Sequence record: OZ346182.1
Reading direction: 5' to 3' (one strand)
Source: a phage
DNA: 64,000 bases
In this document: positions 41,317 to 41,676 of the stretch, one piece after another
Layout: each line of letters starts with the position of its first letter
Numbering within the stretch: position 1 is the stretch's first letter
Program-made: the position numbers and the translations under genes
The notes under the pieces: generated by a model
The model's input: the letters and a program-made list of their open reading frames with translations, nothing else
Told to the model about the DNA's origin: nothing
Databases searched by the model: none

Positions 41317-41504
41317 CTTTTTCATTTCAGATTTGTGCAGGTAGAGTTCTGTAGAGAAATCTATAGAGAAAATTTTGAACTCCAAAGAGAAAATTCATTC
41401 TCAAACTGTGCAGGTAATCTCCAAAGAGCTTTTTCATTTTCAAAACGTGCAGACCCCGCTCAGGTCGGGCAAGAAAAATCATTTTAGAATTGTGCAGGTA
41501 GGTT
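41317..41504 (+). repeat. four direct repeats, consensus TTCATTTY-N6-TGTGCAGGTA, followed by a C-rich polypyrimidine tract (41515-41560)
   Basis: Copies at 41317-41346, 41391-41420, 41429-41458, 41475-41504. Confidence 0.5.
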
Positions 41505-41676
41505 TTTATAGACAGCCAGCCCAACCCCTCTCCCCCTCTTACTCCCCCTCTCCCCAAAAGTCAAGAGAAAAATTTGTAGCGGATTGAAAAATAATTCTTG
41601 ATTTGCGTTCTGTTTTGTGGTAGTCGTGCGCACCCGTTTCATTACAGTTTTGCCAAAAATATTTTTAAAATTTTTA

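Follow-up and report, generated by a model that had tools for sequence, protein, structure and literature searches.

The DNA analyzed here is a 64,000-nucleotide (nt) stretch of sequence record OZ346182.1, referred to below as the window, which derives from a Felixounavirus genome. Our interest was in an array of four direct repeats that is housed in a 523-nt non-coding gap, between the terminator of a macro-domain gene on its left and the promoter of the first of a series of early gene cassettes on its right (Table 1). Both flanks were as the original prediction had described them. The first cassette promoter is followed by a leader hairpin and a gene for a protein of 126 amino acids (aa) at 41772-42152 (repeat families D2 and D3), and this gene heads a series of small genes, each with the repeated promoter, leader hairpin and ribosome-binding site (families D1-D3 and D7). 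BLAST searches with positions 41200-41780 matched 289 phage records, of which 199 covered at least 80% of the query. The matched phages mainly infect Escherichia, Salmonella, Shigella and Citrobacter, and all of the matched records whose taxonomy was fetched were assigned to the Ounavirinae, the Felix O1-like myoviruses. The order of macro gene, gap of approximately 460-520 nt and small genes is that annotated in Felixounavirus, Mooglevirus (Sf19), Suspvirus (SUSP1) and Kolesnikvirus (SunLIRen and SeKF_13), and the direct repeats annotated in wV8 begin at the cassette promoter (DR_6).

Table 1. Features in and beside the non-coding gap that houses the repeat array (positions are those of the window).
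Feature	Position	Strand	Details
Macro-domain gene, 261 aa	40463-41248		Upstream of the gap; Pfam Macro E=1e-7; PHROG 335 'phosphatase'
Intrinsic terminator of the macro-domain operon	41278-41322	+	Hairpin 41278-41319, T run 41318-41322; terminator scan
Repeat unit 1	41306-41343	+	GGTAAGGAGGGC-TTTTT-core TCATTTCAGATTTGTGCA-GGTA; core 41322-41339
Partial 21-nt duplicate of the unit 2 5' flank	41356-41376	+	GAAATCTATAGAGAAAATT, without core; repeat family D6
Repeat unit 2	41377-41416	+	GAACTCCAAAGAG-AAAAT-core TCATTCTCAAACTGTGCA-GGTA; core 41395-41412
Repeat unit 3	41419-41455	+	CTCCAAAGAGC-TTTTT-core TCATTTTCAAAACGTGCA-GACC; core 41434-41451; GGTA ending absent
Repeat unit 4	41461-41500	+	CAGGTCGGGCAAG-AAAAA-core TCATTTTAGAATTGTGCA-GGTA; core 41479-41496
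C-rich polypyrimidine tract	41516-41555		27/40 C, top 40-mer of the window
Putative leftward sigma70-like element, weak	41536-41564	-	TTGACT 41564-41559, 17 nt, TAAGAG 41541-41536; sub-threshold in the scan
Conserved non-coding block	41556-41636		AAAAGTCAAGAGAAAAATTTGTAGCGGATTGAAAAATAATTCTTGAT...; from alignments; between C tract and AT-rich stretch
AT-rich, easily melted stretch	41637-41676		Nearest-neighbour stability scan; adjoins the first cassette promoter upstream
First early-cassette sigma70 promoter	41677-41705	+	TTGACT-17-TAATAT; promoter scan; repeat family D2; annotated promoter in ASO1A

The motif TCATTY-N6-YGTGCA has four exact matches in the window, all on the plus strand and packed within 175 nt at the core positions of Table 1, and no further copies; the scan covered the 64-kb window, with the other 26.5 kb of a near-identical genome lying outside it. 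By simple arithmetic, base composition predicts approximately 0.04 exact matches on both strands. When one mismatch was allowed there were nine matches, compared with 1.49 +/- 1.09 in shuffled sequences, and none of 100 shuffles reached nine. The lack of further exact copies also led us to reject the possibility of a general phage promoter or operator motif that is reused elsewhere. Each unit is approximately 38 nt long and comprises, from 5' to 3', a purine-rich segment, a tract of four or five As or Ts, and the core. The repeat finder reported the units as 34-nt copies with 68-82% identity (families D1 and D3). The first unit overlaps the terminator, whose 3' arm and T tail also form the 5' part of the repeat, and the coreless duplicate explains part of the longer gap of 73 nt between units 1 and 2.

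The original prediction had listed four repeats of 25-30 nt, each ending in TGTGCAGGTA. All four are present at 41317-41500, but TGTGCAGGTA ends copies 1, 2 and 4 only, with copy 3 ending in CGTGCAGACC, and the proposed length was too short as it left out the upstream A- or T-tract and the purine-rich segment. Nor could the GGTA tail be retained as a conserved element, because comparison with relatives reduced the core to TCATTT-N7-GTGCA and the Kolesnikviruses carry TGTGCATAG at the position of the tail.

Conservation of the repeats in relatives, which had been named beforehand as a check, was found to hold in four named genera and one more distant lineage, with diverged spacers. The array was present in all Felix O1-type lineages examined, within the non-coding gap that follows the macro-domain gene, and there was one array per locus, as in the window. 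In an alignment of eight sequences from four genera the repeats formed invariant islands (TTTTTCATTT...TGTGCA) amid diverged DNA. A position table was compiled from 39 units of 10 lineages, drawn from Felixounavirus, Mooglevirus, Suspvirus, Kolesnikvirus and the more distant lineage, and it gave the consensus W4-T / TCATTT / Y-M-A-A-W-T-Y / GTGCA / K. TCATTT, AA and GTGCA were identical in 38 or 39 of the 39 units and eleven core positions were invariant or nearly so, while the flanks carried approximately 0-1 bit and the N positions and inter-unit DNA were near random. This pattern suggests that purifying selection acts at the motif positions only, and the array is the best-conserved non-coding element found in the region. 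The three bases 5' of the core were AAA in 20 units and TTT in 19. The two orientations of an A-tract are equivalent in duplex DNA and distinct in RNA, from which we infer that the motif is recognized as double-stranded DNA.

Among loci retrieved from IMG/VR via the macro protein, 27 of 29 had the array; the two without it were those of the most distant macro homologues (41% identity, in other phages). The spacing between cores was 73/39/45 in Felixounavirus, 73-77/39-41/45 in Mooglevirus- and Suspvirus-type contigs, and 37/37/39 in Kolesnikvirus, which has four evenly spaced units ending in TGTGCATAG, including a full unit where the window has the coreless duplicate. The more distant lineage, represented by an 88-kb contig (L175), has two pairs of units with spacings of 36 and 38 nt, the pairs being 148 nt apart, directly 3' of an open reading frame (ORF) of 148 aa whose assignment as a macro-domain protein was made by eye only. 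On the reverse strand of that contig, approximately 320-480 nt into the segment inspected, TTAACA/TTAACC repeats, including TTTTTAACA, TTATTAACA and TCATTCACA, crowd a stretch of about 150 nt beyond the array. They recall the TGTTAA repeats in the terminal repeat of Felixounavirus as well as the variant DnaA boxes discussed for phage T5.

When 2.9 million viral contigs were searched for pairs of cores separated by 12-40 nt, 30 stretches were identified. All were on contigs of 51-94 kb, and those that were inspected or that recurred at macro-homologue loci were Felix O1-like; a scan of the viral contigs for one core gave chance matches only. In metagenomes, arrays of the characteristic spacing were found only alongside a macro homologue, the remaining matches being unrelated tandem repeats, and no Enterobacterial match for the two-copy pattern was found in 185,579 bacterial and archaeal genomes. 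Based on these sequence searches, the tandem pattern is confined to the Ounavirinae.

The array was also kept where the macro gene has been swapped for a 41%-identical allele (L166/L227 type, with three units) and where the DNA on its right has been replaced (JLBYU32 type). It forms an island between mosaic junctions at approximately 41270-41280 and 41503 (L166, L188, L227, L004 and L025), and to the right of 41503 two unrelated alleles circulate, one with the C-rich tract and the other of the JLBYU32 type. An 89-kb Felixounavirus contig (L019, 3998-4198; IMGVR_UViG_3300045988_004180) had lost repeat unit 4; past the equivalent of approximately 41468 it continued with 200 nt that were 100% identical to the mukE/mukB junction of E. 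coli. This phage-host join inside the array is probably an assembly or library artefact.

A further possibility, with which its position between two mosaic junctions agrees, is that the array is a functionless relic, consisting of a set of decayed duplications of a terminator tail and the module downstream of it which are kept as homology patches for mosaic recombination. Unit 1 does comprise a terminator 3' arm and T tail, and further terminators in the window end in GCC-TTTTT-CATTTC, one of which (37129-37168) precedes a core with one mismatch. However, neutral decay would not keep eleven core positions near-invariant in 39 units while the bases between them randomise. In addition, the core is held among lineages whose macro proteins are only 41-70% identical, and copy number and spacing are held as well. 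We regard a relic as improbable. That terminator (GGCTGCTTCGGCGGCC-TTTTTT) and the one-mismatch core copy that follows it (TTATTTGTATTTTGTGCA) together occupy 37129-37180, with the core copy overlapping a promoter-like TTGTAT-16-TATAAT, and based on this arrangement the repeat units may have derived from a terminator-tail/promoter module.

Many GenBank records have ORFs annotated over the array, either on the plus strand, as in Felix O1 (ORF32), wV8 (gp13) and JLBYU32, or on the minus strand, as in Bas63 (gp96/97), Pr103Blw and others. A protein-coding gene was nevertheless rejected, as the ORFs concerned (Felix O1 ORF31-33, wV8 gp13 and Bas63 gp96/97) are broken elsewhere while the motifs persist. 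The three candidate frames were frameshifted in wV8, had one to six in-frame stops in Mooglevirus and Suspvirus, and were open only among near-identical genomes. As the reading frames are not preserved, the evidence gathered for the array also shows that the ORFs overlying it in many GenBank records are spurious.

A structured leader, which had been suggested as an alternative to a binding site, did not fit either, since the array is preceded by a terminator, is followed by the cassette promoter and has no conserved RNA fold. RNAalifold found covariation in the terminator helix, whose 3' arm GGTAAGGAGGGC is invariant and whose pairing is kept across lineages via compensatory changes, and none in the repeats. 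The 235-nt region folded no better than its shuffles on either strand (z = +0.42 and +1.43), and Rfam returned no match (best E-value 0.51, far under the gathering score). A known RNA family and a tRNA remnant were likewise rejected.

We also considered whether the units might be tandem promoters, or might be transcribed into a repeat RNA that is bound by an RNA-binding factor. As promoters they would point leftward, with (T/G)RAAAT, the complement of TCATTTY, as the -10 element, and the leftward site at 41564-41536 would be the candidate transcript start. Two units of phiEa21-4 have minus-strand sigma70 matches of this kind (TTGCCA-17-TAAAAT, 10/12, and TTGCCA-17-GAAAAT, 9/12) with a third leftward promoter, TTGACC-18-TATACT, just to their right, and matches of 9/12 were found in the L175 lineage and in Mooglevirus unit 1. 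The match of 9/12 in Sf19 is on the plus strand. However, AT-rich motifs match easily, with shuffled sequences yielding two to four such matches, and the array of the window has no site at threshold on either strand. Moreover, the -35 parts vary between genera and the invariant TGCAC would sit in the promoter spacer. One sigma70 promoter per unit was rejected because the array of the window has none and the -35 parts are not conserved. The equivalence of A- and T-tracts speaks against a motif at the RNA level, as do the lack of RNA structure and of an Rfam family for a transcribed repeat. We consider tandem promoters or a bound repeat RNA improbable.

The original suggestion of an array of protein-binding sites fared better, in that the core is near-invariant over genera, the spacers diverge, A- and T-tracts are interchangeable and the site is unique. 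We consider it fairly likely that the array represents sites for one sequence-specific double-stranded-DNA-binding protein. A single protein, of host or phage, would bind all of the units as double-stranded DNA through a two-part contact, with TCATTT and GTGCA approximately one helical turn apart, and through the narrow minor groove of the A/T tract. A host partner that is itself conserved is suggested by the near-invariance of the core in phages whose hosts range from Escherichia to Erwinia.

Several known elements were compared with the repeats. DnaA boxes (TTWTNCACA, at most one mismatch) were not found as the conserved core in the repeats of the window or Sf19, and there were none in the Felixounavirus, Mooglevirus or Suspvirus arrays. 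All four units of phiEa21-4 (L179 4135-4265; also L174) do have an 8/9 DnaA-box-like sequence on the minus strand, CTATGCACA or TTATGCACG; among the sequences compared, this match is Kolesnikvirus-specific and outside the conserved core. In a comparison by eye with consensus sequences, none of integration host factor (IHF), CRP, Fis, TyrR, PurR, ops/RfaH, marbox and restriction sites fitted all four copies and all genera, and these comparisons serve as leads only. An array of clustered regularly interspaced short palindromic repeats was rejected based on the total period of 37-45 nt, the degeneracy of the units outside the core, and the homology between units of the inter-core DNA.

A protein bound at the four sites could act as an operator, insulator or roadblock that governs transcription where the long rightward operon gives way to the early cassettes, whether by shutting off or activating the first cassette promoter or by blocking read-through or leftward transcription. 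The array is placed exactly between the terminator and the first cassette promoter, its conservation pattern is typical of protein sites, and the temporal control of Felix O1 is unexplained (PMC3185647). The phages also have a candidate sequence-specific DNA binder, a putative XRE/Cro-type helix-turn-helix (HTH) protein of 99 aa (3908-4204, minus strand; Pfam HTH_3 E=9e-10) that is conserved in 261 Felixounavirus, Mooglevirus and Suspvirus records. However, the HTH protein was not detected in the Erwinia Kolesnikviruses, which carry the array, and direct, non-palindromic repeats are atypical of dimeric HTH repressors. The sites are also 180-390 bp upstream of the first cassette promoter and are absent at the other promoters of the same family. 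Operators that response-regulator-type or phage regulators bind at direct repeats, such as the boxes of OmpR, PhoB and TorR, whose consensus was compared with the array by eye only, are likewise asymmetric, head-to-tail, AT-rich sites upstream of a promoter, but they abut or overlap it and have a half-site period of 10-11 bp, whereas the array is 180-390 bp away and has a period of approximately 38 bp. Control of early transcription by the array, as the original prediction had proposed, seems somewhat disfavoured by this distance and by the lack of copies at the other promoters, and we consider a function of this type unlikely.

The most plausible role in our view, although a tentative one, is that of an iteron-like array associated with a replication origin or initiation region. 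An origin is favoured because the site is unique, the repeats are direct, there are flanking promoters and DNA that is AT-rich and prone to hybrid formation, and the replisome needs opened DNA. Iteron origins have three to seven direct repeats with a recognition sequence of approximately 17-22 bp, at a site that is non-coding or within the initiator gene. They adjoin AT-rich DNA and promoters, and recognition is often two-part, over two successive major grooves. The array resembles the iteron origins of lambda, of F, P1, pSC101 and R6K, and the repeat origins of lytic lactococcal phages in its clustered direct repeats of the same orientation at a unique site. It differs from them in its period of 37-45 bp, compared with approximately 22 bp, and in the initiator, as iteron origins have a Rep- or O-like protein and none was recognisable here, either nearby or elsewhere in the annotations. 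By annotation the replisome is instead T7-like, with a family-A polymerase, a gp4-like primase/helicase, a ligase and an exonuclease. The T7 origin, with its phi1.1A/B promoters and AT-rich region, and the T4 R-loop origins oriF and oriG are similar to the locus in being promoter-flanked, AT-rich intergenic sites, and leftward transcription here, with a C-rich template and a G-rich non-template strand, would promote a stable RNA-DNA hybrid. The T7 and T4 origins lack a repeat array, however, and here the leftward promoter is weak and the G-rich tract is absent in many isolates.

We speculate that the array marks the phage replication origin or initiation region, where the four sites of the same orientation would assemble a nucleoprotein complex in the fashion of iterons. 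The complex would act together with the leftward promoter-like element, the C-rich, G-quadruplex-prone tract, the AT-rich stretch and the strong promoter firing away from the array. As a T7-like replisome needs pre-opened DNA, transcription-assisted opening beside the bound array would be coherent as a mechanism.

A number of observations weigh against an origin of this type. Iterons are not needed by T7-type replisomes, classical iterons are spaced about half as widely as the units here (37-45 bp), and more than 25 kb separates the array from the polymerase and primase genes. No Rep/O/DnaA-like initiator was found in the annotation of Bas63, in which approximately 60% of genes lack an assigned function, or among 10 neighbouring proteins searched against Pfam and PHROGs. 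No known host-factor consensus fits the repeats, with DnaA matching in Kolesnikviruses only and IHF, CRP and Fis having been compared by eye only. The C-rich, G-quadruplex-prone tract is dispensable in many isolates, and the -10 element of the leftward promoter is poor in the allele of the window. Lastly, the minimum of cumulative GC skew is at approximately 11.07 kb, away from the array, and the least stable DNA is at the same position and at 48.5-49.2 kb, around the terminal repeat. The operons on the polymerase side and the primase side diverge from an intergenic region at approximately 10960-11170, which contains both the least stable 80-mer and the GC-skew minimum and is an alternative candidate replication origin.

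The C-rich tract to the right of the repeats had been pointed out in the original prediction and was confirmed as the most C-rich 40-mer of the window, the next having 19 Cs. On the minus strand, 41525-41555 (GGGGAGAGGGGGAGTAAGAGGGGGAGAGGGG) is the sole canonical G-quadruplex motif in the window (four runs of at least three Gs, with loops of 1-7 nt), compared with 0.05 expected in shuffles. The minus strand is predicted to be G-quadruplex-prone, and plus-strand RNA of the tract would be an ideal C-rich, G-poor candidate for a Rho-loading site. The minus-strand motif persists in Felix O1, wV8, L166, Sf19 and SUSP1 despite base changes and is absent in JLBYU32 and the Kolesnikviruses, the latter retaining a shorter C-rich segment, CGCCCACCCTCCCCTCTACC. 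When a 271-nt query was used in BLAST, 107 of 292 records covered at least 80% of it, and the typical partial match stopped at query position 204. Many Felixounavirus matches end at window position 41503, and repeat unit 4 is the portion that BLAST still picks up in Erwinia phages. Among the matching records other than those of Erwinia phages, well over half lack the tract, and alleles of the JLBYU32 type have unrelated sequence in its place that is initially G-rich. That it is missing or replaced in so many relatives indicates that the tract is a dispensable neighbour and not part of the repeat unit.

Three independent assemblies break within this tract (41533-41606). Two contigs (L015 and L016) both terminate at the equivalent of 41545, with L016 running on into Nextera adapter, and the TH10 GenBank record (L009/L010) runs from 41533 around to 41606, its two ends overlapping by 74 nt. 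A contig of the Mooglevirus type (L037) breaks off approximately 40 nt further on. The breaks could be due to a physical discontinuity, to strains that differ at the allelic junction, or to a sequencing gap caused by a G-quadruplex or i-motif.

The remaining elements of the gap lie to the right of the C-rich tract or overlap its end. The -35 block of the putative leftward element is kept in both alleles, and the element is oriented into the G-rich tract and the array; the equivalent site of phiEa21-4 is the 10/12 match TTGACC-18-TATACT. The conserved block next to it is kept in Felixounavirus (both alleles), Mooglevirus and Suspvirus. The AT-rich stretch, which doubles as upstream DNA of the cassette promoter, is within the least stable 0.4% of 40-mers, with those at 49225, 11071 and 4804 being less stable still.

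A genome terminus, terminal repeat or pac site at the array was rejected, as the genome ends map approximately 7 kb to its right. Pr103Blw has an annotated direct terminal repeat of 581 bp (PMC8303462), which corresponds to window positions 48202-48811. The termini of UAB_Phi87 were set by Bal31 digestion, in which the sensitive SpeI fragments were of 4322 and 2819 bp (PMC4837284), and the SpeI sites around the homologous segment predict fragments of 4430 and 2751 bp, which fits. With the terminal repeat at 48202-48811, the array lies approximately 6.7-7.5 kb short of the right end (7.3-7.5 kb in the window and about 6.7 kb in Pr103Blw), a distance equal to 7.6-8.5% of the genome. The terminal-repeat homologue (48230-48810) is dense in (C/T)TGTTA(A/G), often 11 nt apart, and is bracketed by an 87-nt inverted repeat that is 99% complementary (48128-48214 and 49281-49367).

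This distance brings to mind the first-step transfer of T5 DNA, which covers 7.9% of the genome (bioRxiv 10.1101/866236). If the array and C-rich tract were a pause or anchor for DNA entry as in T5, the incoming genome would be halted approximately 8% from its right end with the early cassettes exposed first. The interval between array and end consists entirely of small genes with their own sigma70 promoters, each Kolesnikvirus unit has an 8/9 DnaA box, as was proposed for the T5 stop signal, and several assemblies break inside the C-rich tract. Like the T5 stop signal (iss), the array is a conserved, complex untranslated repeat region approximately 8% from one end that is better conserved than the neighbouring genes, and DnaA-box-like elements are shared, although here in the Kolesnikviruses only and in T5 as boxes proposed by Davison. 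On the other hand, two-step injection has never been reported in Felix O1-type phages, either genome end could be the first to enter, and the Felixounavirus, Mooglevirus and Suspvirus arrays have no DnaA boxes. In T5 the signal spans 1.2 kb, is built from palindromes and nested inverted repeats, and is part of a terminal repeat of 10 kb, whereas the array has four simple direct repeats and the terminal repeat here is 0.6 kb long and 7 kb distant. The 8% match could also be a coincidence. We consider an entry stop very improbable, and it is just as doubtful that it would be accompanied by a site-specific discontinuity in virion DNA, to which the three assemblies that end at 41533-41545, one of them running into adapter, might be attributed. 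If such a stop did exist, Felix O1-type phages would transfer their DNA in two steps, the block of early cassettes first, as is known so far only for T5-like phages.

Felix O1 has a classical role in the typing of Salmonella, and phages related to it are in wide use for biocontrol and therapy. No description of the array, or of an Ounavirinae origin, was found in the literature searched; the Felix O1 genome paper considered exact repeats of at least 24 bp only and does not mention the array, and it states that temporal regulation is not understood (PMC3185647). The array would seem to be an undescribed example of a familiar class, the cis-acting direct-repeat arrays of phage intergenic DNA. 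It could lead to a missing function of Felix O1, whether a replication origin, temporal transcription control or a mode of DNA entry, and offers a small, concrete target: four 18-bp cores, unique in the window, that have survived gene replacement on both sides.

Two other features of the window were noted. Approximately a dozen small early genes lie at 41666-47515, each with a common upstream module consisting of either a terminator-like GC hairpin and AGCCCCAGATAAAGAGCTTTAC, or a TTGACA promoter with a GGGGAGGGAATGACCTTCCCC leader hairpin and a CTTAAACTAGGAGA ribosome-binding site. These modules resemble the mobile promoter-stem-loop cassettes of T4-type phages. Further to the right, 25 tRNA genes are clustered on the plus strand at 58632-63556.

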